From positions 134,077 through 198,076 of the forward strand of contig CANQYI010000003.1 of assembly GCA_947628005.1 (NCBI GenBank): a stretch of 64,000 bases of DNA, read 5' to 3'. The position numbers and the translations under genes are program-made. Each line of letters starts with the position of its first letter. Within the stretch, counting starts at the first letter, position 1. The notes under the pieces are model-generated. The model ran no database searches and was not told where the DNA came from. It was given only the letters and a program-made list of their open reading frames with translations. Source of the DNA: an uncultured Clostridia bacterium (GTDB lineage: Bacteria; Bacillota; Clostridia; TANB77; CAG-465). Of this stretch, positions 5,172 through 63,843 are shown one piece after another.

Positions 5172-6284
5172 TTATATTATAACATCTTTTTTTATATATT
5201 TCAAGTATTCATAAATAAAATCATCTATTTTGCCATCAAGTACAGCTTGAACATTACCAACTTCATAGTTTGTTCTATGATCTTTTACTAATGTATATGG
5301 ACAAAATACGTAGGATCTAATTTGGCTTCCCCAACCATTATCACTTGATTCTCCCTTTATACTATTCATCTTTTCCTTATAACTATTTCTTTCTAGATTA
5401 TATAATTTTGCCTTCAACATTTTCATAGCATAATCTCTGTTTTGAAATTGTGATCTTTCAGTTTGACATGTTACTACAATTCCTGTTGGAATGTGTTTAA
5501 GTCGCACAGCAGAAGATGTCTTGTTTACATGTTGTCCCCCTGCTCCACTAGCTCTAAATACATCCATCTGTATATCTTCATCTTTTATATCAACTTTGAT
5601 ACTATCATCAATTTCTGGCATTACTTCTACTGAAGCAAAAGAAGTATGTCTTCTGCTATTAGCATCAAAAGGAGAAATCCTTACAAGTCTATGAACTCCA
5701 TTTTCAGATTTTAAATACCCATAAGCATTACTTCCTTTTACTAAAAAAGATACACTTTTAATTCCTGCTTCTTCTGAGTCTTGATAATCTAATGTTTCTA
5801 CCTCAAACTCATTTTTTGCACACCATTTAAGATACATTCTATATAACATTAATGCCCAATCTTGTGATTCTGTACCACCAGCTCCTGGATGAATAGTAAC
5901 AATTGCATTATTTTCATCATATTCTTCTCCAAGTAAAGTGTCTATTTCTAATTTTTCTATAGATTCTTCTAATTCTTTTGATATTTTATTAGATTCTTTA
6001 AAACTCTCTATATCATTCATACTAATAGCAAGTTCTAAATACTCTTTAGCATCTCTTAGCTTGCTTACAAGTGTATCAATTTTTAAAACGCTTTTTTCAA
6101 GCCTTTTTTGTTCCTGTAAAATTTTAGAAGAATTATCTGTATCTTTAAAGAAATCTTCATTTAGTATCATTTTTTCTATTTCTTCAATTTTAGCTTTTTT
6201 ATCACTTATTTTTAAAGCTATAATAAGTTTATCTAAATTTTTTTCTAATTCTTCTAATTTTAATCTTATACTATCAAAATCCAT
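5172..6284 (-). CDS. prfB: peptide chain release factor 2
   Basis: GGQ motif (SGAGGQHVNKT) and SPF tripeptide-anticodon motif (RISPFD) typical of RF2. The ORF is continuous, so no programmed +1 frameshift site. Start overlaps the upstream stop as TAATG. Confidence 0.9.
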   Translation of the reverse strand: MDFDSIRLKLEELEKNLDKLIIALKISDKKAKIEEIEKMILNEDFFKDTDNSSKILQEQKRLEKSVLKIDTLVSKLRDAKEYLELAISMNDIESFKESNKISKELEESIEKLEIDTLLGEEYDENNAIVTIHPGAGGTESQDWALMLYRMYLKWCAKNEFEVETLDYQDSEEAGIKSVSFLVKGSNAYGYLKSENGVHRLVRISPFDANSRRHTSFASVEVMPEIDDSIKVDIKDEDIQMDVFRASGAGGQHVNKTSSAVRLKHIPTGIVVTCQTERSQFQNRDYAMKMLKAKLYNLERNSYKEKMNSIKGESSDNGWGSQIRSYVFCPYTLVKDHRTNYEVGNVQAVLDGKIDDFIYEYLKYIKKDVII

Positions 6285-6982
6285 TATTTTACCTCATTCC
6301 ATATTTTATCTTTATATTCATAATCCCAAGGATTAAAGGTAAATTCTAAATATTCATCTTTAGTAGGATGAAAAAAAGATAAATAATATGACCACAAAGC
6401 TAAATTTTGTCCTACCTTATTTTGCTTTTGACCATATTTTTGATCACCATATAGTGGATTTCCTATTGAAGAAAACTGTACTCTTATTTGATGATGTCTA
6501 CCAGTTTTTAAATCAATATCAACTAATGTATATTCCTTATCTCTTAATCTAATATTTTTAATTGGTGTATACTCTAATTGAGCATATTTTGCATTCTTTG
6601 TATTTGGGTCAACTACTCTACTCATATTCATTTTTTCATTTTTTACTAAATAATTTTCCAATATCACTTTTTTGTTAATTTCAAGTTTACCATTTACTAT
6701 TGCATAATATTTCTTTTTAAAGTTCTTTTCTCTTATATATTCACTAATTCTACTAGCTGCCTTTGAAGTCTTTGCAAATACCATTAATCCCCCAACCATT
6801 CTATCTAATCTGTGAACAAGACCTAAATATACGTTTCCCGGCTTATTATATTTTTCCTTTAAATATTCCTTTATTATCGTAATCATATCTTTATCGCCAG
6901 TTTTATCTTGTTGTACTGGAATACCTGCAGGTTTAATAACAACTATTATATGATTATCTTCATATATTACTTTTAAATTCAT
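6284..6982 (-). CDS. RluA-family pseudouridine synthase
   Basis: HRLDRMVGGLMVFAKT catalytic-Asp motif of the RluA family. 232 aa. RBS AAGGTGG. Confidence 0.8.
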   Translation of the reverse strand: MNLKVIYEDNHIIVVIKPAGIPVQQDKTGDKDMITIIKEYLKEKYNKPGNVYLGLVHRLDRMVGGLMVFAKTSKAASRISEYIREKNFKKKYYAIVNGKLEINKKVILENYLVKNEKMNMSRVVDPNTKNAKYAQLEYTPIKNIRLRDKEYTLVDIDLKTGRHHQIRVQFSSIGNPLYGDQKYGQKQNKVGQNLALWSYYLSFFHPTKDEYLEFTFNPWDYEYKDKIWNEVK

Positions 6983-7117
6983 TAAGTAACCACCTTTAGT
7001 ATTATTTTAGCACAGATTATATACATAAACAAGTTAAGATATTTATTTTTTTTGTAAACTGTGCTATAATCTGTGTAATAAGAAAATGTTCCAACTTAAA
7101 TTTAAGGAGGTAATTTT

Positions 7118-7801
7118 ATGATTAATTTTGATGATTTGTCATTTGAAGGTTTTGATATATCTTGCTATAAATTTATACTTGTTGAAGTTAATAAAAATGT
7201 ATCACTACACATTTTAAATTCTAAAAATGTATTAGAATATACTATACTGCCAAAACTTTCTAAGGCTGAAAAAGACAGATTATATAGTAATAAGTTAGAG
7301 AGTAATGTGTTTTCTTTTTTAGGTCAAAGTTACTTTTTATCTGTTGACAATTGTAATTTTGATGAAATTATGGTTCCATACTTTAAATTAGTGTCATCTA
7401 AGTATATTTTTAAAAAGTTTAAAAAAATAAAAATTCCAAATGATGCTACTAGAAAATTATCTTTTAAAGATTATGAAAATTTAGACAAATTTATTGAAAC
7501 CAAGGTTAAAAATAAGCTATTAGAAGATATAAAATCAACAGATTCTGTTTGCATTGAATTGATTTCTGGCCTACCAGCCTCAATGATTCCAAAGGAATAT
7601 ACAATTTTATATCATAATCTTTGTACTTATGTGCTCTTAGATACAAAAAAAGCAATATCGATGGCAAATGTACAAAATAATTGTTTAAGAATAAAAGTTG
7701 ATAAGCGGTATAAGGCAGCAATTATTGGATATAAAGGAGAAAATATAAAAAGAATTGCAAAAAAACTCAATATAAAAATAATTGTTGATATAAAAAAATA
7801 A
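7118..7801 (+). CDS. hypothetical protein with C-terminal KH-like RNA-binding segment
   Basis: C-terminus IIGYKGENIKRIAKKLNIKI resembles a KH-domain GXXG loop. AAGGAGG RBS. Rest of protein unrecognised. Confidence 0.45.
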   Translation: MINFDDLSFEGFDISCYKFILVEVNKNVSLHILNSKNVLEYTILPKLSKAEKDRLYSNKLESNVFSFLGQSYFLSVDNCNFDEIMVPYFKLVSSKYIFKKFKKIKIPNDATRKLSFKDYENLDKFIETKVKNKLLEDIKSTDSVCIELISGLPASMIPKEYTILYHNLCTYVLLDTKKAISMANVQNNCLRIKVDKRYKAAIIGYKGENIKRIAKKLNIKIIVDIKK

Positions 7802-7825
7802 CTGATTAAAAAATCAGTTATTTTT

Positions 7826-8023
7826 TTATGCGTTTTCTTGCTTTTTCTCTTTAATTTCAAGAACTTGTTTCTTATTATAATAACCACAGCTTGGACAAGC
7901 CTTATGTGATAAAATTGGTTCTGAACAATTTGGGCAAGTTGATAAATTTTTTTCTTCTAATTTCCAATTAGAACGTCTTAAATGTGTTCTTTCTTTTGAC
8001 CATCTTCTTTTTGGTTGTGCCAT
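7826..8023 (-). CDS. rpmF: 50S ribosomal protein L32
   Basis: MAQPKRRWSKERTHLRRSNWKL... with a CPNC...CPSC zinc ribbon. Matches the Firmicutes L32 pattern (MAVPKRRTSK...RRTH...CxxC). AAGGAGGG RBS. Confidence 0.85.
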   Translation of the reverse strand: MAQPKRRWSKERTHLRRSNWKLEEKNLSTCPNCSEPILSHKACPSCGYYNKKQVLEIKEKKQENA

Positions 8024-8211
8024 ATCGTGTATTCCCTCCTTAACAAGCTATATATCAAGATAACATAGCTTAGAATTTCTTAGTTACCTATATATTATAT
8101 ACTAGTAAGTTAAAAATGTCAATAACTAAACATAATTTTTTTCTTGACACATATGTTATAATGATATAGATTCTTATTTTAACTATTTTCAAATTTGAAA
8201 GGAGACAAAAA

Positions 8212-8748
8212 ATGCTAAATTCTACAGATATAAATACCATATTTAATGTCAGTGAAAAAATTGACAGAGCAATACTTGCTCAAGCAAAGACTAAAAGTTG
8301 CGTAAGTCTTATTAGAGATAAATTAATTCTGCGGTATCCATTTAATGAGGCAATACTAAATGTAAGAGAAGAAATAACCCATAAAATTTATTCTGAAAAT
8401 CCTTCATTGATAAAAGATACATTATCTGAATTATCTTGTTTAATTGATAATTTAAAAAGTTATAATTCAGAATATTTTGCAGATAAAGTGCCCTCTGATA
8501 TAATACCAAATTATATGTTGCTTTTAAGCTATATTGGTATAGCTCCAACTAAGTCAAAAATATTTAAGAGAATAAAAAATATTATTACGGTAACCTCACG
8601 ATTTGTATCAAATAAAATAACTTTAGAAAAGTTAAAAGCCGAATTTGAAATCCAACTTGTTTCGTTTGAAAGGAAAATTCAAATATACAAAAGTAGCGAT
8701 GAAGAAGATATAATAGTTTTTATTTTAAGGTATGATATAAAAAAATGA
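8212..8748 (+). CDS. hypothetical protein (178 aa)
   Basis: ORF with GAAAGGAG RBS and followed by a hairpin terminator (aaagcctgcttaataagcaggcttt). No motif recognised. Confidence 0.45.
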   Translation: MLNSTDINTIFNVSEKIDRAILAQAKTKSCVSLIRDKLILRYPFNEAILNVREEITHKIYSENPSLIKDTLSELSCLIDNLKSYNSEYFADKVPSDIIPNYMLLLSYIGIAPTKSKIFKRIKNIITVTSRFVSNKITLEKLKAEFEIQLVSFERKIQIYKSSDEEDIIVFILRYDIKK

Positions 8749-8868
8749 TTTAAAGCCTGCTTAATAAGCAGGCTTTATTTTATACACATTTAAAATATTA
8801 AAATATTAAAATATTAAAATATTTAATAAAAATATAAATTATGATATAATTATATTCGAGGTATTTTT

Positions 8869-9147
8869 ATGAATATTTATATTTACTTTATAATTTATAT
8901 AATAGCAATAAATTTATTAAGTTTTTACGTAATGTATTCTGACAAATCAAAAGCAATTAGAAATGCAAGAAGAATACCAGAAAAAAGTATATTTTTATTA
9001 TGCTTTTTAGGTGGCTCATTAGGAACTTATCTGGGAATGTATAAATTTAGACATAAGACTAAGCATATAAATTTTGTAGTTATGGTTCCTGTCATATTTT
9101 TATTAAACATTATAATGGCATATTTTATATTAAAATATATAAAATAA
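8869..9147 (+). CDS. DUF1294-family small membrane protein
   Basis: 92 aa with two TM segments and conserved ARRIPE...GGSLGTYLGMYKFRHKTKH block typical of DUF1294. Preceded by an extended -10 TGATATAAT. Confidence 0.6.
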   Translation: MNIYIYFIIYIIAINLLSFYVMYSDKSKAIRNARRIPEKSIFLLCFLGGSLGTYLGMYKFRHKTKHINFVVMVPVIFLLNIIMAYFILKYIK

Positions 9148-9150
9148 TAT

Positions 9151-10875
9151 TTACATTTTTTCTGGACATTCTATTCCCAATATATCAAGGCCATTTTTTA
9201 TAACTATTCCTGTAGCATAAACTAGTATTGATCTTGCTGTTTTTAACTGTTCATCTTCTAAATTTACTACATTACATTCATTGTAAAATCTAGAAAACTT
9301 AGTTGCTACATCGATTAAGTATCTTGAAAGTATTGCAGGTTCATATTCAATTGCTGCCCTCTTTATAGTTTCTTTAAACTTTTCTAGTGACTTTATTAAT
9401 TCTATTTCTTGATTTGTATTTAAAATATTAAAATTTACATTATCTAATGAGATTTTATCTAAATTAAAGTTTAACTTTTCAAGTATTGAATTAGTTCTTA
9501 CGTATGTATACTGTATATATGGTCCTGTTTCGCCATCAAATCTTAATGTTTCATCTAAATCAAATATTACATCTTTGCTTTTACTAGATTTTAAGTAATT
9601 AAACACCAATGCGCCTATTCCCACCTGTTTTGCAACTAAATCAATATTTTCTAATTTAGAATTTTTATTTCTTAATATTTCCTGTGACTTAGAAATTGCT
9701 TCATTAATTAAGTCATTTACATATATAACATTACCTTCTCTAGTTGACATTTTTCCACTCTTTAATCTAACCATTCCATAAGATACATGTACAAGTCCTT
9801 CTTGATATTTCTTATCAACTAAATGTTTTGCTACACTAAATATCTGTTTAAAATGCAATATTTGTTCTGTAGCAGTAACATATATACATTTATCGAAATT
9901 ATAAGTCCTTGCTCTATATAATATAGCAGCTAAATCACGTGTTGCATATATTGTAGATCCATTTGATTTTAATACTATACATGGTGGCATATCATCTCCA
10001 ACATCTACAACTTTTGCTCCTTGGCTTTCAATTAATACACCCTTTTTATCTAAAATGTCTATTACTTCATCCATTTTATCGTTATAAAAAGCCTCTCCAT
10101 TATAAGAGTCAAAGTGACAATTTAAAATTTCATAAATTCTATTATATTCTTTTAATGATACATCTTTAAAGAATTCCCACATCTTTATTAATTCTTTATC
10201 GCCACTTTCTAATTTTTTAAAGTTTTCTCTAGCTAAATTCATTATATTTTCGTCTTCTTTAGCAAGTTTTGATATTCTAACATAAATGTCTGAAAGTACA
10301 CCAAGTGGGTCCTTTGATAAGTCATATTCATCACTAAAGCGCCTATAACCTTCTATTAATAATCCAAACTGTCTTCCCCAATCTCCTAAATGATTTATTG
10401 AAATTACATTGTAGCCTAATTTTTTATATAAATTATATATTGCTTTTCCTAATACAGTATTTCTAAAATGTCCTAAATGAAACGGCTTTGCAATATTAGG
10501 AGAAGAATACTCCACAATTATATTAAGTTTTGAATTTTTGCTTTCATCTTGCATACCATAGTTATCTTTATTAATTACAATATCATTTAATGTACTAGAA
10601 ATAATATCTTCATTGTTAATGTAAAAATTTAAAAATCCATTAACAGGCTCTACTTTTTTTATATTTGAATCTAGTTTGATACTATTTTTTATATCATTTG
10701 CAATATTAATAGGAGAATTTCTTAAAATTTTTGCAAGACTAAAACATGGAAAAGAAAAGTCTCCATTTTTTTTATCTTTAGGGACTTCTATTTTATCGTA
10801 AATTTCATCATAATCCACATTTATATTTAAAGAATTTATTATACTGTTTGCTATTACCTCTTTAATATTTTTCAT
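9151..10875 (-). CDS. argS: arginine--tRNA ligase
   Basis: Class-I HIGH motif (PNIAKPFHLGHFRN), MSTR (KMSKS-equivalent) motif and an ArgRS-type anticodon-binding C-terminus. 574 aa. Confidence 0.95.
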   Translation of the reverse strand: MKNIKEVIANSIINSLNINVDYDEIYDKIEVPKDKKNGDFSFPCFSLAKILRNSPINIANDIKNSIKLDSNIKKVEPVNGFLNFYINNEDIISSTLNDIVINKDNYGMQDESKNSKLNIIVEYSSPNIAKPFHLGHFRNTVLGKAIYNLYKKLGYNVISINHLGDWGRQFGLLIEGYRRFSDEYDLSKDPLGVLSDIYVRISKLAKEDENIMNLARENFKKLESGDKELIKMWEFFKDVSLKEYNRIYEILNCHFDSYNGEAFYNDKMDEVIDILDKKGVLIESQGAKVVDVGDDMPPCIVLKSNGSTIYATRDLAAILYRARTYNFDKCIYVTATEQILHFKQIFSVAKHLVDKKYQEGLVHVSYGMVRLKSGKMSTREGNVIYVNDLINEAISKSQEILRNKNSKLENIDLVAKQVGIGALVFNYLKSSKSKDVIFDLDETLRFDGETGPYIQYTYVRTNSILEKLNFNLDKISLDNVNFNILNTNQEIELIKSLEKFKETIKRAAIEYEPAILSRYLIDVATKFSRFYNECNVVNLEDEQLKTARSILVYATGIVIKNGLDILGIECPEKM

Positions 10876-56673: not shown

Positions 56674-57531
56674 CTAGATTATATCATTTATATCACTTTT
56701 AGATAATATGGTATTTGCTCCAAGTTTTATTAGATAGTTAGAAAAATAGCAATTACTACTCATTATATCACCTGGTACTACGAATATTTCCTTGCCACAT
56801 TCTAGTACAAAATCTATAAACTTTACATTTTTTTCTTCATATCTTGCTTCTAGAACTATCAATTTATTTAATATACTACTTGCAAGTATCTTACTTAAAT
56901 TTTCATTTTTAATATTAAAATTATACGGGCAAAATAATATAAGTTTATCTGTTAAATCTATGTTATTTATATATTCTAAAGTATATTTATCAATCTTAAA
57001 ATTTAATATGCATATTTCATTCTCACGCATTAATTCTATATCTTCTAGCTTTTCTATAATTTTAATCTGCACTTTAAATTTTTCCATTATTTTTTTATTT
57101 ATATACCCTTCAATATTATTTGAATATTCACTGCTATTAATTTCATTTTTATATATCATAATTTTATCATTTTTAAGCAATAAATCAGTATTTCCTATGG
57201 AAAAAATAACTAATTCATAATTTTTGAAGCAGAAAAAAATATCATTAAATTTATTATTATCATAAGTTAATAAATCTACGCCATATTTTTGAAGTTTATT
57301 ATAAAAATTCTCACACTTTTCTTTTAAACTTGGATTTGTTAATTTGGAATAAATATTTTCTGAAATAAAAACTTTATTTTCTAATAAATATTGTTTGAAT
57401 AAAAATTTTACTTTTGAAATTTTATATATAGTTTCTAAATTATTAAAGACCTTTAATAATTGTTTAAACATTTCATAATTTACATTGCAAAACATGGATA
57501 ACCATAAATAATATTTTATTATCAATATCAC
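56674..57531 (-). CDS. DprA/Smf-like protein (divergent, Rossmann glycine motifs degenerate)
   Basis: C-terminal region LIVLEARYEEKNVKFIDFVLECGKEIFVVPGDIMS...GANTI is collinear with the DprA C-terminal block (VVEA...GSLITAR.ALEQGREVFAVPGSI). The canonical GxARGID motif is not evident. Start ambiguous. Confidence 0.45.
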   Translation of the reverse strand: MILIIKYYLWLSMFCNVNYEMFKQLLKVFNNLETIYKISKVKFLFKQYLLENKVFISENIYSKLTNPSLKEKCENFYNKLQKYGVDLLTYDNNKFNDIFFCFKNYELVIFSIGNTDLLLKNDKIMIYKNEINSSEYSNNIEGYINKKIMEKFKVQIKIIEKLEDIELMRENEICILNFKIDKYTLEYINNIDLTDKLILFCPYNFNIKNENLSKILASSILNKLIVLEARYEEKNVKFIDFVLECGKEIFVVPGDIMSSNCYFSNYLIKLGANTILSKSDINDII

Positions 57532-57576: not shown

Positions 57577-58404
57577 CTATTCTAGACTTATATTTCCTAT
57601 CTTTCCTGATTTTAAGTCATCTAAGAAAATTTTAGAAGTCCTTACCATATCAACTTTTCCACCTGATACTAAGCATCCTCTTTTTTTACCTATTAACTCT
57701 AACAGTTCATATGTATCAAGATTTAAACTCGAATCATCTAATTTATATTTACTAATTAGCATACTAGAATATTTTGGAACGTTAAGTAACATCTTAAGAC
57801 CTTCACATGCTAATTCTTCAACATCTAAAATTTCTTGCTTTATATTCCCCGTAAGTGCTAATTTTAATCCTGCATCATTATCTGAAATTCTTGGCCATAA
57901 CAGTCCAGGTGTGTCTAAAATATCTATATTATCTGCCACTCTAATCCATTGCTTTTTTAAGGTTACCCCTGGTTTATTTCCGACATTTGCTACTTCTTTT
58001 CCTGCTATTTTATTTATAATTGTAGATTTGCCTACATTTGGAATTCCTACTATTAAAACTCTATAAATTGGCTTAATCTTGACAGACTTATCTAGATATT
58101 TTTGGTTATATATCTTTTTTCCTATTATTTTTATTTTTTCTATTATATTTGAAATATTTTCTGATATATTAGCATTAGTTGATATACATGTATAGCCTTC
58201 TTTTTCAAATTTTTTAATCCACACTTCTAAATTTTCTTTATCTGCAAGATCAGACTTATTTAAGACAATTATTCTTTGCTTTCCTTTTGTGAGTTCATGT
58301 ATATTTGGATTAGAGCTAGAAACTGGAATTCTTGCATCTAATACTTCGACCACTATATCAATCAATTTTAATGTATCTTTTATCTCATTTTGCGCTTTTA
58401 CCAT
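57577..58404 (-). CDS. rbgA: ribosome biogenesis GTPase A (YlqF/RbgA)
   Basis: Circularly permuted GTPase order: NKSDL (G4) ... GIPNVGKST (G1) ... DTPG (G3). Confidence 0.85.
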   Translation of the reverse strand: MVKAQNEIKDTLKLIDIVVEVLDARIPVSSSNPNIHELTKGKQRIIVLNKSDLADKENLEVWIKKFEKEGYTCISTNANISENISNIIEKIKIIGKKIYNQKYLDKSVKIKPIYRVLIVGIPNVGKSTIINKIAGKEVANVGNKPGVTLKKQWIRVADNIDILDTPGLLWPRISDNDAGLKLALTGNIKQEILDVEELACEGLKMLLNVPKYSSMLISKYKLDDSSLNLDTYELLELIGKKRGCLVSGGKVDMVRTSKIFLDDLKSGKIGNISLE

Positions 58405-58520
58405 ATGCCCGTGGATACCAAACCACTGAAATTTTAGAATTTTCTTTGTTATTATCTAAATTTTCATTATTTTTATTTCTTTTATTTTTCAATTTTACTC
58501 ACCCACCTTTTCTAAATAAA

Positions 58521-58618
58521 ATTTGATTTATAAATTTCTATAGGTCAATTTTTTTGATTTTTTTGACTTATAGATTTTTATAGGTCAATTTTTTTGATTT
58601 TTTTGACTTATAAACTTT
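58521..58618. repeat. about 2.5 tandem copies of a 40-bp AT-rich repeat (tataggtcaatttttttgatttttttgacttata...)
   Basis: Copies at 58539-58578 and 58579-58618 differ at 3 positions. A partial degenerate copy precedes them. Each unit contains TTGATT/TTGACT hexamers. Confidence 0.8.
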
Positions 58619-58638: not shown

Positions 58639-59775
58639 TTATTTAAATAATTCAATATATTTATCAAAAGTAAAAACTTGATTCCTTGAATATCCTGTTT
58701 TTTCAGTAATTATATCATTATCAAGTAATATATTGATTATATTCTTAATCGTACCTGATTTAATTCCTGTTTTTTGTATTAAATAATTTCTATTAACTGT
58801 TGGTTCATCATACAAAACCTCTATAACCTTTTTTAAATTTTCCGTTTTTGCTGGTAATTTCATAATTAAATCATTAATTTCATTTGTAAACTTAATGACT
58901 TTTTCAAATTTTACTCTCGCTGTTTTTGCTGTTTCTATCATTGCTTCTAAGAAAAATTTTATCCAAGAAATCATATCATTATTAGTCCTTACTCTACTTA
59001 AGAAATCGTAATAAGCCTCTTTATTTTTTTCAATATAATCTGATATATAAAAACAAGGCTTATTTATTATTCCCTTACTTAATAAATAAATTGGAATTAA
59101 AATTCTTCCAGTTCTTCCATTTCCATCTAAAAATGGATGTATTGATTCGAACTGATAATGAATCATTGCAATCTTTATTAATTCAGGCACATTTATATTA
59201 TCATTATTTATAAATTTTTCTAAATCACTAAGACAATTTCCTATTTCACTTGGTATTGGTGGTACATATACTGCATTATCTGGTCTTGTCCCGCCAATCC
59301 AATTTTGAGAAATTCTATATTCTCCTGGATTTTTATGCTTTCCTCTAACATCTTTTAATAAAATTGCATGTATTTCTTTTATCAGTCTTGTACATACAGG
59401 TAATTCTTTTATTCTTTCAATTCCATAGTTCATAGCTTCTACATAATTTTGAACTTCTTGCCAATCATCTCTTTTTTCAGGATCAACATCCAACTTTTCT
59501 AATAAATCTTCATCAATTGTAGTTCTAGTTCCTTCAATTCTGCTAGATTTATTGGCTTCAACTTTTACATGCATTTTAATATAAATATCTATATTTGGAA
59601 TCTGCTCAGCAAAACCATTTAATGCTCCAAGTTGCAAGCTAGCTTCAGATAATAATTTATTAAGTTTACTATCATTCCATATCCATTCATCATTTATTTT
59701 ACTTGGCATAAATGCTTTATAATCATTTACTTTTAGATAACTTCCTGATTGATATTCTTCTAACTTTTGCATCAA
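58639..59775 (-). CDS. Fic-family protein
   Basis: Canonical Fic motif HPFLDGNGRTGRIL in a 378-aa protein with a C-terminal wHTH-like tail. Confidence 0.85.
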   Translation of the reverse strand: MMQKLEEYQSGSYLKVNDYKAFMPSKINDEWIWNDSKLNKLLSEASLQLGALNGFAEQIPNIDIYIKMHVKVEANKSSRIEGTRTTIDEDLLEKLDVDPEKRDDWQEVQNYVEAMNYGIERIKELPVCTRLIKEIHAILLKDVRGKHKNPGEYRISQNWIGGTRPDNAVYVPPIPSEIGNCLSDLEKFINNDNINVPELIKIAMIHYQFESIHPFLDGNGRTGRILIPIYLLSKGIINKPCFYISDYIEKNKEAYYDFLSRVRTNNDMISWIKFFLEAMIETAKTARVKFEKVIKFTNEINDLIMKLPAKTENLKKVIEVLYDEPTVNRNYLIQKTGIKSGTIKNIINILLDNDIITEKTGYSRNQVFTFDKYIELFK

Positions 59776-59927: not shown

Positions 59928-60818
59928 TTATTCATTTTCTTCACCTTCTTCTTTGGCTAATTCATATAATTCTTTCTCGTCTTTGACTATTTTAATTAAT
60001 TCTTCTTTAGAAGGTAAATATGTTAAGTATTTTGATGCATATACATTTTTTACTTCATCTCCTAAAGTCATCTCAACAACAGCATCATCTTTGTCGGCAC
60101 ATAATAGTATTCCAATTGGCTCATTTTCTCCTTCTATCATTTGAGTCTTTTTATAATAATTCACATACATTTGCATTTGTCCTATATCTTGATGTGTTAA
60201 TTTTCCAATTTTTAAATCTATTATAACAAAACATTTAGCTAATCTGTTATAAAATACCAAATCTGGATAATAATATTCTGAGCCTATTTTTATTCTCTGT
60301 TGGCTAGCAACAAAAGAAAATCCTCTACCTAATTCAAGTAAAAATTCAGTTAAATGACTTAATAATGCTTTTTCTAAATCCGTTTCTAAATAATTTCTAT
60401 TTTCCTTTAATCCTGCAAATTCAAATATATATGGTGTTTTTAACAATTCTTCTGGCTGTTTTTCTATTAATCCTTTTTTAGCATCTTCTATTATTAAATT
60501 TTTATCTGGTGATATTAAATATCTATCATATAATTTAATGTTGATTTGCCTACGAAGTTCTCTACATCCCCAATTCGATTTAATGGATTCAGCTTTATAA
60601 AATTCCCTTTCTTCTTTTCTCTCTATTCTAATTAACTCTTGAAAATGTGCCAAACTTAATTCGGTCGACACTGTCGACCATATTGGATACATCTCATAAA
60701 ATCTTCTCATTCTTCTAATACTTACAGAAGAAAATCCACTTTCAAATTCCTTTGTAAGTTTATTCGATAATGATTCTACTATTTTTTTTACCATATGATT
60801 TATCTGTGGCATTATCAA
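59928..60818 (-). CDS. YhcG/DUF1016-family PD-(D/E)xK nuclease-like protein, apparently N-terminally truncated
   Basis: YYPDLVFYNRLAKCFVIIDLKIGKLTHQDIGQMQMYVNYY is the DUF1016 restriction-endonuclease-like core. Aligns to family members starting around residue 60. The frame closes 4 codons upstream of a TTG start. Confidence 0.6.
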   Translation of the reverse strand: MIMPQINHMVKKIVESLSNKLTKEFESGFSSVSIRRMRRFYEMYPIWSTVSTELSLAHFQELIRIERKEEREFYKAESIKSNWGCRELRRQINIKLYDRYLISPDKNLIIEDAKKGLIEKQPEELLKTPYIFEFAGLKENRNYLETDLEKALLSHLTEFLLELGRGFSFVASQQRIKIGSEYYYPDLVFYNRLAKCFVIIDLKIGKLTHQDIGQMQMYVNYYKKTQMIEGENEPIGILLCADKDDAVVEMTLGDEVKNVYASKYLTYLPSKEELIKIVKDEKELYELAKEEGEENE

Positions 60819-61003
60819 ATAATTCAGAAGTTATTTTACCAACATACCATGATAGTACGAATTTTCTAAACACCTTTTATGACTTATTACCTTTTTTCTA
60901 TTCTATCAGATAATTTATTTACTCCGTTTCTTTATTTATACAACTTCTTTTAACATTGTATCATACTTTTCATTTTTATTATTAGTTTAATATTTAATTG
61001 AAT

Positions 61004-61489
61004 TTATTTGTTAATATGTTTTTCCATTTCTGCATCATCAGCAATACTTTCCATGTACTTAATTACTTCTTCTAATTTTTTTGGCATATCTTCATAACCT
61101 TCAATTTTATATGTTTTATTATCTAATTTTATGAAGAAACTCCAACATAACCCATCTAAAACTTCTTCGTCATTGTATTCAGTTTTAGACATTTTTTCGA
61201 GATTTATATTTTTTACTAACTCTATAAGTTTATTTATTTTTAAATTTTCTTTTATATAAATACTTATAAGTCTAGGATCATCATCTTCTATAAAATGAAA
61301 TCCTTCTTTTTCTTTAAAAGAAATTTTATCATGAATTTTAATATATTTTTCTCCATTAGGAATATAATTTGGAACCGCTGAATGTATTCTTTCAATTTTA
61401 AAATCTTCAATCTCTTTTTTTGAAAGTTTTATATATGTACCACCTTCAAAAAAAGCAGCACCATAATAACCTATAATTAAATCATCCAT
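61004..61489 (-). CDS. hypothetical protein (161 aa), third gene of an uncharacterised operon
   Basis: ATG at 61489 overlaps the upstream gene's stop by 8 nt (ATGGATGA). No recognisable motif. Confidence 0.5.
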   Translation of the reverse strand: MDDLIIGYYGAAFFEGGTYIKLSKKEIEDFKIERIHSAVPNYIPNGEKYIKIHDKISFKEKEGFHFIEDDDPRLISIYIKENLKINKLIELVKNINLEKMSKTEYNDEEVLDGLCWSFFIKLDNKTYKIEGYEDMPKKLEEVIKYMESIADDAEMEKHINK

Positions 61490-63116
61490 TGTTATTACTC
61501 CAATCATAATTTAATATATCTAATCCAATATTTAACCATCTACTATATATTTCAACAGGTTGCAATCCTTTTATTTTTTCTTGAAATAGATTATTTATAG
61601 AATCATTTATAAATAAATGATTTCCAACTCCTATATCAACATGTATGAATCCATTTTGAACTCCAGTAACTGTTTCAAAGATTCCGCAATTTAGAGTTTT
61701 TAATGTACTAAATTTTGAATATAATTTTTTAACATCAAAGTTTAAAATATTTGTACGATAGAGTTTTATATCATTTTCCTTTTTAGTAATAATTTCAATG
61801 CCATTTGGTTCGCCCATAGCTCCACCTTCTGCAAGAGAAAAAAACATTACATCTTTTTCTTCGAAATCATTTAAATTATTATCATCAATTTCAATAAATG
61901 CAATTAAATATGAAAACAGTTTTTTCTCTAGTAATTCTATTGTTCCATTTTCTAAATTCGTAGCTATCATTCCATCACAAAATCTCTCTCCTCTAATAAT
62001 ATGAGTTAAGTATGAGAGTATTTCATCAAAGTTTAAATCTTCAATATTTTTATCTTTTATATAATCAAAGTTTTCAAGATGATTATGGTCTAATAATTTC
62101 AAGTTATAAAATGCTTCAATCCAATCATATATAGTTTTGTCATATTTAGGAAAAGGCATAGTAAATGAGCCATCTTCATTTTCTTTTGAACTTTGCCACT
62201 CTACCATTTGACTTTTTATAAAAGGTAGTTTTTTTGCTCTATCTTTTATATTTTTATAATCTTCAAATTCAAAATCATCATCAAGATAATCATATTCTTC
62301 CTTAAATAGATTTATATTTTTACTATTATATTCTTCATACTCCTCTTTTGAGCTTCTTCTAATTATTCTTTTTGTTCTATTTATAGGAAAAGGAACATTT
62401 CTATAAGAAAATGTTTCAATATTTTTAACAATAGCAGGACAAGATGATTCTTTTACTGGAACATAAACATAATCTCCAACATTCAAATTTTCTATATTTG
62501 AAATATAATAAAATGTTTTATCTTGATCTTCCTTATATTTTACTGAAACATAAGTATATAGAGTATTATAGATATCTAAAACTTTTAACTTTATTCTTTT
62601 TGCAGAAATATAGATTCCGTTATCATCAATTTCTAAAGATATTTTTTTACCTATTTTATTTACAGTAATACTGTCTATATAGGTTTCATTAGTAAAATAA
62701 GCCATAGTAAAATCATCTACATCATAAAGATAAAATTCTATTTCTTGTTCTCCATCCTTTAAAAAGACTTCTGCATTACCATCTTTATTAAATATTTTAT
62801 ATATTTCAGCTCCATCAAAGAAATCGTTTTTTTGTAAATAAATATCTATTTTTTCATAGTCAGTTAATTCAATATATTTCTTTTCTGTTATATTAACTCT
62901 TTCTTTTTTTTCAATTAAAATATTTAATTCAATTAAATAGTCTTCATATACGCTAGCTATAACTTCAGGAGAAGGATTTACAAAATATTCTTCCTCTTTT
63001 ATTTTACCTTGTTTATAGTCGCTTATATATTGCTCTAAATGTTCTTTTTCTTTATATAATTTATCTAAATCCCAATTTTGTTTTTCTTCAATATATGAAG
63101 CTGGACTAATCATCAT
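61482..63116 (-). CDS. hypothetical protein (544 aa), second gene of an uncharacterised operon
   Basis: ATGATG start at 63116 6 nt after AGGAAG. No Walker, HxH, HNH or other catalytic signature recognised. Acidic, D/E/N/Y-rich. Confidence 0.5.
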   Translation of the reverse strand: MMISPASYIEEKQNWDLDKLYKEKEHLEQYISDYKQGKIKEEEYFVNPSPEVIASVYEDYLIELNILIEKKERVNITEKKYIELTDYEKIDIYLQKNDFFDGAEIYKIFNKDGNAEVFLKDGEQEIEFYLYDVDDFTMAYFTNETYIDSITVNKIGKKISLEIDDNGIYISAKRIKLKVLDIYNTLYTYVSVKYKEDQDKTFYYISNIENLNVGDYVYVPVKESSCPAIVKNIETFSYRNVPFPINRTKRIIRRSSKEEYEEYNSKNINLFKEEYDYLDDDFEFEDYKNIKDRAKKLPFIKSQMVEWQSSKENEDGSFTMPFPKYDKTIYDWIEAFYNLKLLDHNHLENFDYIKDKNIEDLNFDEILSYLTHIIRGERFCDGMIATNLENGTIELLEKKLFSYLIAFIEIDDNNLNDFEEKDVMFFSLAEGGAMGEPNGIEIITKKENDIKLYRTNILNFDVKKLYSKFSTLKTLNCGIFETVTGVQNGFIHVDIGVGNHLFINDSINNLFQEKIKGLQPVEIYSRWLNIGLDILNYDWSNNNG

Positions 63117-63128
63117 ATTTAACACTTC

Positions 63129-63575
63129 CTACTTTTTTATTTCTTCAATATCTCTGTATATATTTTCATTTTGTTTATCCCATCTAATCCCACAATTTAA
63201 GCATAGATAATCTCTAGTATAGTAATCTCCACATGCCCATGGATTACTATATAAGCCTATTTTTTCAAATTTCTTTTTTTCAGCCTCTTTTTGTTCTTTT
63301 GTGCCATTAAATAGTCTATAATATAAATCTCCTGCATAAGTTCTTGCAACATATCTACCATTACAATTAGGACATTTTAAATCATTAGAATTATATTTAA
63401 TTTTGCCTCCTATACCAATAACATTATTAAGAATAAATTGAGATTTTTTAGAATTTTTTAAATCAAAATCTTTGAATTCATTTTGCAGTTTATCAATAGC
63501 TTCTCCTAAATTATTAAATTCAAGATTAAGAATTGTTTCAACTTCCTTATCAGTTAATATAATATTATATTTCAT
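63129..63575 (-). CDS. hypothetical zinc-ribbon protein (148 aa), first gene of an uncharacterised operon
   Basis: Start at MKYNIILTD after AGAGGT. CPNC...(46 aa)...CLNC cysteine pairs suggest a zinc ribbon. Confidence 0.5.
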   Translation of the reverse strand: MKYNIILTDKEVETILNLEFNNLGEAIDKLQNEFKDFDLKNSKKSQFILNNVIGIGGKIKYNSNDLKCPNCNGRYVARTYAGDLYYRLFNGTKEQKEAEKKKFEKIGLYSNPWACGDYYTRDYLCLNCGIRWDKQNENIYRDIEEIKK

Positions 63576-63622
63576 AAATATACCTCTTTTTATAATCAAA
63601 AAGCAAAACTTTAATTGTTTGT

Positions 63623-63651
63623 ATTATATCAAAAAATCCCGATTTTTACAA
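63623..63651 (-). promoter_or_regulatory. promoter of the three-gene operon (TTGTAA-17-TGaTATAAT, extended -10)
   Basis: Read on the minus strand: ttgtaaaaatcgggattttttgatataat, about 45 nt upstream of the first gene's RBS. Confidence 0.5.
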
Positions 63652-63730
63652 GCCACGAAAACTCTTTATGACCGACTATATTTTCTTTGCTACTACAATC
63701 ATTCTTCCATTTTTCTCACTTTCTCGGAGG

Positions 63731-63766
63731 CATAAAAAAGAAGATAAATTTTTTAAATTATCTTCT
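63731..63766 (-). terminator. intrinsic terminator downstream of rmlC
   Basis: gaagataa-N10-ttatcttc stem followed on the minus strand by TTTTTTATG. Confidence 0.55.
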
Positions 63767-63843
63767 ATATTTGTGATATTTACTTTAATATTTTGAACTT
63801 CTATTATTTATACAACGTTTTTAACATTATATCTTATATATTT

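Follow-up and report, generated by a model that had tools for sequence, protein, structure and literature searches.

Three co-directional genes in an uncultured Clostridia bacterium as likely stranded cargo of an integrative conjugative element

Three adjacent genes, here labelled gA, gB and gC, were analysed in a window of 64,000 nucleotides (nt) from an uncultured Clostridia bacterium (GTDB lineage Bacteria; Bacillota; Clostridia; TANB77; CAG-465; assembly GCA_947628005.1, contig CANQYI010000003.1, positions 134,077 to 198,076 of the forward strand). Coordinates given without a locus name are those of the window. All three genes are located on the minus strand: gA (63129-63575) encodes 148 amino acids (aa) starting with MKYN, gB (61482-63116) 544 aa starting with MMISP, and gC (61004-61489) 161 aa starting with MDDL. 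Each is preceded by a plausible ribosome-binding site (AAAGAGG, AGGAAG and GGAG, respectively). A gap of 12 nt separates gA from gB, and gB overlaps gC by 8 nt. These sizes and junctions, described in a first-pass annotation of the DNA, were reproduced by independent gene calls on near-identical public contigs. The annotation had read the genes as an anti-phage or toxin-immunity module composed of a small zinc-ribbon protein, a large effector and a small partner. The analysis given here suggests a different meaning: the locus is likely the stranded cargo of an integrative conjugative element (ICE), made up of shuffled immunity-like or counter-defence-like cassettes, and not a three-part defence or toxin system.

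Upstream of gA lies the promoter TTGTAA-17-TGATATAAT with an extended -10 element (63623-63651, minus strand), which had also been noted in the first pass and which received the top score in a promoter scan of the region. Promoter-like matches as a class occur there about as often as expected by chance (47 found versus 46.2 expected in this AT-rich DNA). The promoter at 63651-63623 is credible because it is conserved across loci, not because of its match class. When the window was aligned with loci L009, L012 and L016, the last two being conjugative-element loci, the -35 element, the TG-extended -10 element and the ribosome-binding site were invariant in all four, and the neighbouring positions varied. 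The promoter region is also kept in L058.

The three genes are genuine and are under purifying selection. The ratio of nonsynonymous to synonymous substitution rates (dN/dS) was 0.13-0.42 for gA, 0.16-0.39 for gB and 0.18-0.28 for gC; between the window and L009 copies of the three genes it was 0.13-0.39. In the same conjugative elements the VirB4 gene gave 0.02-0.07, several-fold below the 0.13-0.42 of the cargo genes, and the higher values of the latter match the expectation for conflict genes. The idea that the block carrying the genes is a dead remnant was rejected on the intact reading frames and this range of dN/dS, though gC is degraded in L030.

The operon belongs to a transferred block (60844-63805, minus strand) composed of a terminator hairpin, a sortase gene remnant, the promoter, gA, gB, gC, one repeat copy and a 5' fragment of rbgA. 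The block is 97% identical over 2972 nt to positions 7685-10655 of L009, a locus in an uncultured Clostridia metagenome-assembled genome (GCA_947625835.1), and the adjacent rbgA gene is just 68% identical between the two. This disparity indicates that the block was exchanged recently between different lineages. The sortase gene remnant (63676-63713, minus strand) comprises the last ~12 codons and the stop, aligned to the 3' ends of the L016 and L012 sortase genes (...AATGGAAGAATGRTWGTAGTAGCAAAGAAAATATAG). Upstream of it the window and L009 part from L016 and L012 (blastn boundary 63714). Type IV secretion genes were not found in the window. The presence of the sortase 3' end together with the promoter of the cargo slot described below identifies the block as a fragment of a conjugative element.

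Most contexts in which relatives of the three genes occur belong to one conjugative-element family of uncultured gut Clostridia. Its gene order is TraG/VirD4, MT-A70, TrbL, PrgI, VirB4, sortase, a variable slot and CHAP hydrolase. At least five different slot contents were found among elements whose VirB4 proteins are 93-99% identical. The most abundant form (L058-62; 53 blocks of the collection) holds gB and gC, with gA exactly absent. In L001 the slot contains a gB homologue and a 65-aa zinc-ribbon gene; in L016-19, gA, a gC-like 217-aa gene and a 177-aa gene; and in L012, gA, an unrelated 170-aa gene, gC and small helix-turn-helix genes. The longest array described here (L064-67) consists of an 89-aa gene, gA, a WapI-like immunity gene, a 194-aa gene, a Cys_rich_CPCC gene, a zinc-ribbon gene, a Macro gene and a 172-aa gene. 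Its WapI-like gene scores above the Pfam threshold (35.7 bits, cutoff 27). Accordingly, gA follows the sortase directly in L012 and L016-19, and in L064-67 it comes second, behind the 89-aa gene. Family scans revealed no toxin domain in gA, gB, gC or the sister slot arrays. The genes thus behave as interchangeable cassettes that stand behind a shared internal promoter.

Two details of these arrays may be recorded separately. The eight genes of the L064 slot occupy positions 5631-9607. The 170-aa gene that takes the place of gB in L012 (7478-7990) has no Pfam match and looks PD-(D/E)xK-like by eye (...DIKLVGG...YFFIECKGKS...).

The first-pass annotation had named the absence of the triad as a conserved unit in other genomes as an argument against a defence or toxin-antitoxin-like system. 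Outside the window, complete triads were seen solely in L009-11, L026 and L030, relatives whose gB shares 90% identity or more with that of the window. Elsewhere the triad is largely missing as a unit. Homologues of gB at 56-75% identity occur without gA or gC, and homologues of gC at about 51% identity without gA or gB. Homologues of gA at 54-59% identity are found within long arrays of unrelated small genes. No obligate pairing among the three genes was observed across loci.

Two contexts outside this pattern were also recorded. In L004 (1168-5051; 11849-17641), a gB homologue with 75% identity lies between a Gabija-like OLD-TOPRIM/UvrD pair and a type I-B cas operon. Two small genes precede this homologue, one of them sigma/ArpU-regulator-like by eye. 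In one further locus, a gC homologue adjoins an AAA_21 gene pair.

The gB protein is modular. The description of it as domain-less proved wrong: residues 300-395 match Pfam DUF6508 (PF20118) with 54.6 bits (cutoff 23.6, E = 1.4e-14), and five recurrent modules can be distinguished. The family is small, with 38 clusters in a database of 5.8 billion sequences, and every full-length homologue carries DUF6508 (30 of the 38 hits). The AlphaFold2 (AF2) model of gB is confident, with a mean predicted local distance difference test score (pLDDT) of 81.9. A profile search of 1.84 billion representative proteins returned 1629 relatives, most of which span one module only, and it is this single-module coverage that defines the five modules, M1 to M5. 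Each of them is also known as a free-standing protein of about 80-150 aa.

The modules, all read from the minus strand, differ in predicted structure and in distribution. M1 (62892-63116, aa 1-75) is a helical hairpin that is absent from the gB homologues of 477-479 aa and is free-standing as P0100, P0203 and P0212. M2 (62562-62891, aa 76-185), with one helix followed by a six-stranded sheet, is Imm50-like; sub-threshold matches to Imm50 were obtained for 7 of 14 homologues (best E = 0.008). The gB model also gave a structural match to the immunity protein PIM7 at 17% sequence identity. This match probably belongs to M2, judging from the order of secondary structure elements and the Imm50 signal. 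M3 (62322-62561, aa 186-265) is a small beta-barrel like the 3'-DNA-end-binding domain of PriA. The Pfam domain PriA_3primeBD (PF17764) is present in four fusion relatives of the gB modules, with a best E of 6e-13. The sole returns from a viral fold library were small unnamed phage proteins resembling M3 (target-normalised TM-scores of 0.5-0.8). Tandem copies of M3 occur in P0124, P0147 and P0166.

M4 (61905-62252, aa 289-404) corresponds to DUF6508. It is commonly free-standing, with 110-130 aa, and is fused in other proteins to ADP-ribosylglycohydrolase (ARH), NADAR, HD_4 or GIY-YIG. M5 (61506-61904, aa 405-537) is an unnamed alpha/beta domain in which the motifs AEGGAMGxPG and LGxGNHL are conserved in alignment. 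It is commonly free-standing as well, with 135-150 aa, and its fusions include Macro, SSB, DUF192 and the combination ARH+SseB+Macro. M4 and M5 are fused in either order and elsewhere are separate adjacent genes, and they probably work as a pair. A search of 8 million papers found nothing on DUF6508, and nothing relevant was found in the literature on Cys_rich_CPCC. A CPCC domain stands in for M4-M5 in the gB relative P0031.

The gA protein begins with a region of ~55 aa, and a four-cysteine zinc ribbon, CPNC...CLNC, comes after it. This ribbon had been recognised in the first pass, and its cysteines (C68, C71, C125 and C128) are invariant in 27 homologues, as is the motif GDxYYRL in the gA family. 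No Pfam family matches gA, and its family comprises 36 homologue clusters in the database of 5.8 billion sequences. By eye, its N-terminus had been read as a ribbon-helix-helix regulator; this was supported by no tool and is not claimed.

The gC protein carries an invariant N-terminal IIGYYG motif and belongs to a still smaller family, with nine clusters in the same database. Its AF2 model has a pLDDT of 90.5 and a predicted template modelling score of 0.87. The predicted fold is a Mago-nashi-like platform, a flat sheet with helices on one face, and is not an enzyme fold. Mago nashi is a core component of the exon-junction complex (PDB 1hl6_B). Its sequence identity to gC is 6% and gC has no eukaryotic RNA-processing context, so the likeness is one of fold only and gives no evidence for homology or shared function. 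Pfam DUF6438 was weakly matched by 5 of 8 gC homologues.

L063 (6001-8111) has a gC-like 210-aa gene that runs into the start of an ARH gene, with a Macro gene next in order. SSB, LPD16 and DUF3846 genes are further members of this array, and DUF2779, WYL and GmrSD genes come after it.

Scans against PADLOC-DB v2, NCBIfam and PHROGs gave nothing significant for gA, gB or gC. The sole PADLOC match among the three was a weak one of gC to NDT_II-A (E = 0.006, 14 bits), and the search of this database lends the suspected defence system no support. Profile searches against solved structures with gA, gB, gC, M2, M4 and M5 produced no credible match. Macro matches in this search were discarded as they arose from Macro-containing alignment rows, and matches to "Bagel/Cake" designed proteins were repeat artefacts. 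Pfam and fold comparison of gB and gC revealed neither a catalytic nor a toxin-like domain, and family-level sequence searches, the only kind applied to gA, revealed no toxin family in it. By sequence inspection, none of the three proteins has a signal peptide, a membrane helix or an LPXTG sorting motif. Fold comparison gave a PIM7-like match for the gB model and a Mago-like fold for the gC model. In place of the large effector supposed in the first pass, gB is a chain of small binding-type modules without an effector domain.

The partners of the module relatives are a further source of evidence. In the 55 multi-domain proteins related to the gB modules, the fusion partners were Macro (7), ARH (3), NADAR (2) and SMI1_KNR4/SUKH (2), together with HD_4, SSB, GIY-YIG, SseB, DUF192 and DUF6438. 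The last of these is the same family that is weakly matched by gC. Within three genes of 17 non-redundant free-standing M5 loci, the neighbours included DUF6508 (5), Macro (3), HIRAN (3) and ARH (2), as well as UmuC, restriction genes and a coupling protein. The company of the modules thus consists of proteins that undo or block damage and of DNA-end binders, and not of weapons.

Individual loci of this set show the following arrangements. In three unrelated loci (L037 2370-5853, L052 1269-2202 and L054 5965-6767), M5 and DUF6508 are encoded by free-standing genes next to each other. In L037 the genes ahead of this pair encode a TraG/VirD4 coupling protein and an ARH fusion. In L056 (4904-7862), an M5-fusion gene is flanked by Macro and ARH genes, beside EF-Tu and EF-G.

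The chromosomal surroundings of the block agree with the first-pass description, which had placed it between rmlC and a truncated DUF1016 gene followed by a Fic gene. The C-terminus of rmlC adjoins the block on one side (PF00908, 29.1 bits). On the other side, the DUF1016/YhcG PD-(D/E)xK gene (59928-60818, minus strand) matches PADLOC PDC-S02 (2e-110) and is devoid of about 45-65 N-terminal residues (about the first 45 profile positions). Its truncation point coincides with the block boundary at 60844. The Fic gene (58639-59775, minus strand) encodes Fic_N, Fic and a C-terminal winged helix and matches PADLOC SoFic with 392 bits (5.5e-118). Because it reaches only 181 bits against the NCBIfam SoFic equivalog, the cutoff of which is 550, it counts as related to the SoFic defence protein, with equivalence unconfirmed.

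The gA-gB-gC genes are bracketed by an imperfect direct repeat of ~34 nt (families D9 and D13; about 85-89% identity, one indel), which is of modest significance in such AT-rich sequence. The upstream copy (63804-63836) overlaps the rmlC stop codon at the block boundary, and the downstream copy (60932-60965) is inside the block, just downstream of gC. In L009 the downstream repeat sequence sits directly upstream of rbgA. The L009-like 5'-end fragment of rbgA in the window (60844-60913, minus strand; reading ...KVFRKFVLSWY) came along with the block. The window's own rbgA begins again at about 58404-58440. This second 5'-end copy is 2.4 kb upstream of it, with the truncated DUF1016 gene and the Fic gene in the interval. 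Compared with L009, the window rbgA has one extra base at the WYPGH codons, and its open reading frame starts at an internal Met (MVKAQ...). This frameshift could be either a recombination scar or a sequencing error. The 2.97-kb block had no DNA match in plasmid or phage collections. The gB protein had none in the plasmid collection and just three weak ones in the phage collection, all to M3.

Tandem repeats occur further along the window. The gap between Fic and rbgA contains a 40-nt unit repeated 2.3 times (58522-58614, 92% identity), and a 35-nt unit at 57348-57415 is present in 1.9 copies.

The favoured reading of these data is that the block moved into the chromosome from an integrative conjugative element of gut Clostridia. 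Its source would be a hypervariable cargo slot located between the sortase and the CHAP cell-wall hydrolase in the type IV secretion operon, where the internal promoter would drive whichever cassettes are present. The gA, gB and gC proteins would be self-contained, non-enzymatic, cytoplasmic proteins of the binder type, united by cassette shuffling and not as one machine. The gB protein appears to be built as a polyimmunity or polyvalent protein. The predicted target of its Imm50/PIM7-like module is a nuclease-type toxin, which the module would block; for the PriA-3'BD-like barrel, the prediction is binding to DNA 3' ends or single-stranded DNA (ssDNA). DUF6508 with M5 is part of a module set that elsewhere stands beside or is fused to enzymes stripping ADP-ribose (Macro, ARH, NADAR) or alarmones (HD_4). 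gC is a predicted Mago-like protein-binding platform, and gA is a zinc-ribbon protein. Such proteins may neutralise incoming toxins or host defence effectors. The protected party would be the host of the element, or the freshly transferred DNA, at cell-to-cell contact.

It is the polyimmunity-like layout that leads to the reading as protective cargo of a conjugative element. Heterogeneous polyimmunity loci consist of tightly packed genes on the same strand, lack a toxin gene and vary in content between close relatives (Zhang et al. 2012, PMC3482391). Likewise, the window genes are tight, polycistronic and on one strand and include no toxin gene, and close relatives differ in how many and which genes the slot contains. 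Similar to polyimmunity proteins, gB strings together several small unrelated modules, one of which resembles solved PIM7 and Pfam Imm50. A WapI-like immunity gene is found in sister arrays, and relatives of the modules are fused to SUKH (SMI1_KNR4; 2 of 55) and ARH domains. Unlike typical polyimmunity loci, the window array is short, with three genes, and its modules fall below the thresholds of curated immunity families. Its home is a type IV secretion operon and not the vicinity of an XerC/D-type recombinase. No cognate toxin is known, M3 is DNA-binding-like, and M5 may bind a small ligand.

Orphan immunity clusters were reportedly described by Ross and colleagues in 2019 on conjugative elements of gut Bacteroidales, under the name of acquired interbacterial defence. 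The likeness to the present case lies in a gut mobile element with immunity-type arrays and without the matching toxins. The differences are that the bacteria here are Clostridia, that delivery would be of the type VII/LXG or WapA-like kind and not type VI, and that the gene families are others.

Polyvalent proteins (Iyer et al. 2017, PMC5512222) offer another comparison. As in that group, gB is a multi-domain protein on a conjugative element, its modules also occur alone or recombined, and its proposed action falls at the moment of invasion. Furthermore, a gC-like gene is arrayed with SSB, LPD16 and DUF3846. Unlike polyvalent proteins, gB has no ArdC, methylase, SNF2, zincin, ART or LPD domain in Pfam; the paper on polyvalent proteins does not discuss Macro, ARH or NADAR (PMC5512222). 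As regards a type II toxin-antitoxin system, neither a toxin family nor a toxin fold was recognised in gB or gC, and the family searches with gA yielded no toxin either.

Two versions of the protective-cargo reading can be distinguished. Immunity to contact-delivered bacterial toxins is backed by WapI, Imm50/PIM7 and SUKH. The other version, a counter-defence that guards the transferred DNA and may be directed against ADP-ribosylation, is backed by Macro, ARH, NADAR, SSB, HIRAN and PriA-3'BD. Several points weigh against the reading as a whole, beginning with the fact that the evidence does not separate the two versions. No gB module reaches the curated threshold of a named immunity family, the Imm50 signal being sub-threshold and the PIM7 match having 17% sequence identity, and gA, gC, M4 and M5 match no named immunity family at all. 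The judgement on gA comes from family-level sequence searches only. The glycine-rich invariant motifs of M5 could mark an enzyme or a ligand pocket and not a passive binder. In addition, gA/gC and gB/gC recur as pairs and M4 and M5 travel together, so some cassettes may cooperate. Finally, of the 80 neighbour families matched at the 17 M5 loci, the 25 commonest include no recognised polymorphic-toxin family. The classical layout of a toxin followed by its immunity gene is therefore not seen for M5, and M5 as a cognate immunity gene was rejected on this ground.

A narrower sub-case of protective cargo is that gB, and possibly gC, shield incoming ssDNA from a DarT-like ADP-ribosyltransferase defence. 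This is the strongest of the alternatives, although it is rather unlikely. M3 would bind DNA 3' ends or ssDNA, and M4 with M5 would be a putative recogniser of ADP-ribose or a modified base, recruiting or replacing hydrolases. Such a role would account for the fusion of M4 and M5 relatives to all three ADP-ribose-removing families and to HD_4, for the Macro and ARH genes that flank the M5-fusion gene of L056, and for the ARH, M4 and M5 genes after the coupling-protein gene of L037. It would also suit the translational coupling of a gC-like gene to ARH, followed by Macro, in an array with SSB, LPD16 and DUF3846. Links to DNA ends are given by the PriA-3'BD-like module, the SSB fusion and the HIRAN and UmuC neighbours. 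There is a precedent in phages, which carry orphan NADAR enzymes neutralising DarTG1 (PMC11825919). In both cases, a mobile element bears the protective half only, and relatives of M4, M5 and gC are found beside NADAR, Macro or ARH. The difference is that no hydrolase is encoded at the window locus, which counts against the proposal and would make the role one of binding or recruitment. We know of no precedent for such a role among orphan antidote-type counter-defence. Moreover, Macro and ARH domains also counter toxins that ADP-ribosylate proteins, and the Imm50/PIM7-like module of gB suggests a nuclease target instead.

A bolder version of this idea, somewhat less likely again, is that DUF6508 and M5 are an unrecognised two-part module that detects or reverses nucleic-acid ADP-ribosylation together with hydrolases (Macro, ARH, NADAR) and DNA-end binders (PriA-3'BD-like, HIRAN, SSB), and that ICEs of gut Clostridia carry M4+M5 and the Mago-fold gC as a shield of incoming ssDNA against DarT-type defence. 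If this were true, the sortase-CHAP slot would be a natural library of counter-defence cassettes.

The model of a three-component anti-phage or toxin-immunity system, in which a zinc-ribbon protein acts as a sensor or regulator, the 544-aa protein as an effector and gC as a small partner, has become improbable. The tight operon with its own promoter fits it, as do the defence-type neighbours (SoFic-like Fic and DUF1016/PDC-S02), the gB homologue between the Gabija-like OLD-TOPRIM/UvrD genes and the type I-B cas operon, and the gC homologue beside the AAA_21 gene pair. Against it, the triad is not kept where gB is less than 90% identical; gB is found alone, gA without gB or gC, and gC without gA or gB. 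No significant PADLOC match was obtained, and the searches with gB and gC revealed no effector domain, be it nuclease, NADase, protease, pore or another kind. The relatives of the modules are fused to antitoxin-type hydrolases and SUKH immunity domains, and the genes are at home mainly in a conjugative element, within its type IV secretion operon. What stands of the defence-like mobile context proposed in the first pass is the gene pool related to conflict, the variable spot and the SoFic-like and DUF1016 neighbours; a host anti-phage or toxin-antitoxin system does not.

That gA, gB and gC are accessories of the conjugation machinery, such as chaperones, sortase substrates or transfer regulators, is very improbable: they share the orientation of the VirB4/sortase and CHAP hydrolase genes between which they are embedded, but the slot content is wholly different among elements with VirB4 93-99% identical, inspection showed no signal peptide, membrane helix or LPXTG motif, the frames are intact outside any element in the window and L009 (dN/dS 0.13-0.39 between them), and single modules also occur in non-conjugative contexts.

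The kind of locus to which protective cargo would belong is already known, and its protein families are uncharacterised. This applies to DUF6508, the M5 domain, the gA zinc-ribbon family and the gC family, the first three of which have no literature. For annotation, the practical message is that tight spacing and defence-like neighbours do not by themselves make an operon a system. The sharpest testable lead is the link of DUF6508 and M5 to all three families of ADP-ribose-removing enzymes. If the protective-cargo reading is true, widespread elements of gut Clostridia hold a swap-in slot inside their type IV secretion operon, through which immunity-like and counter-defence-like genes would be shuffled, co-expressed and spread between species. 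Mobile orphan-immunity arrays would then extend from Bacteroidales to Firmicutes, and the slot would be a compact hunting ground for new proteins that neutralise toxins or defences.

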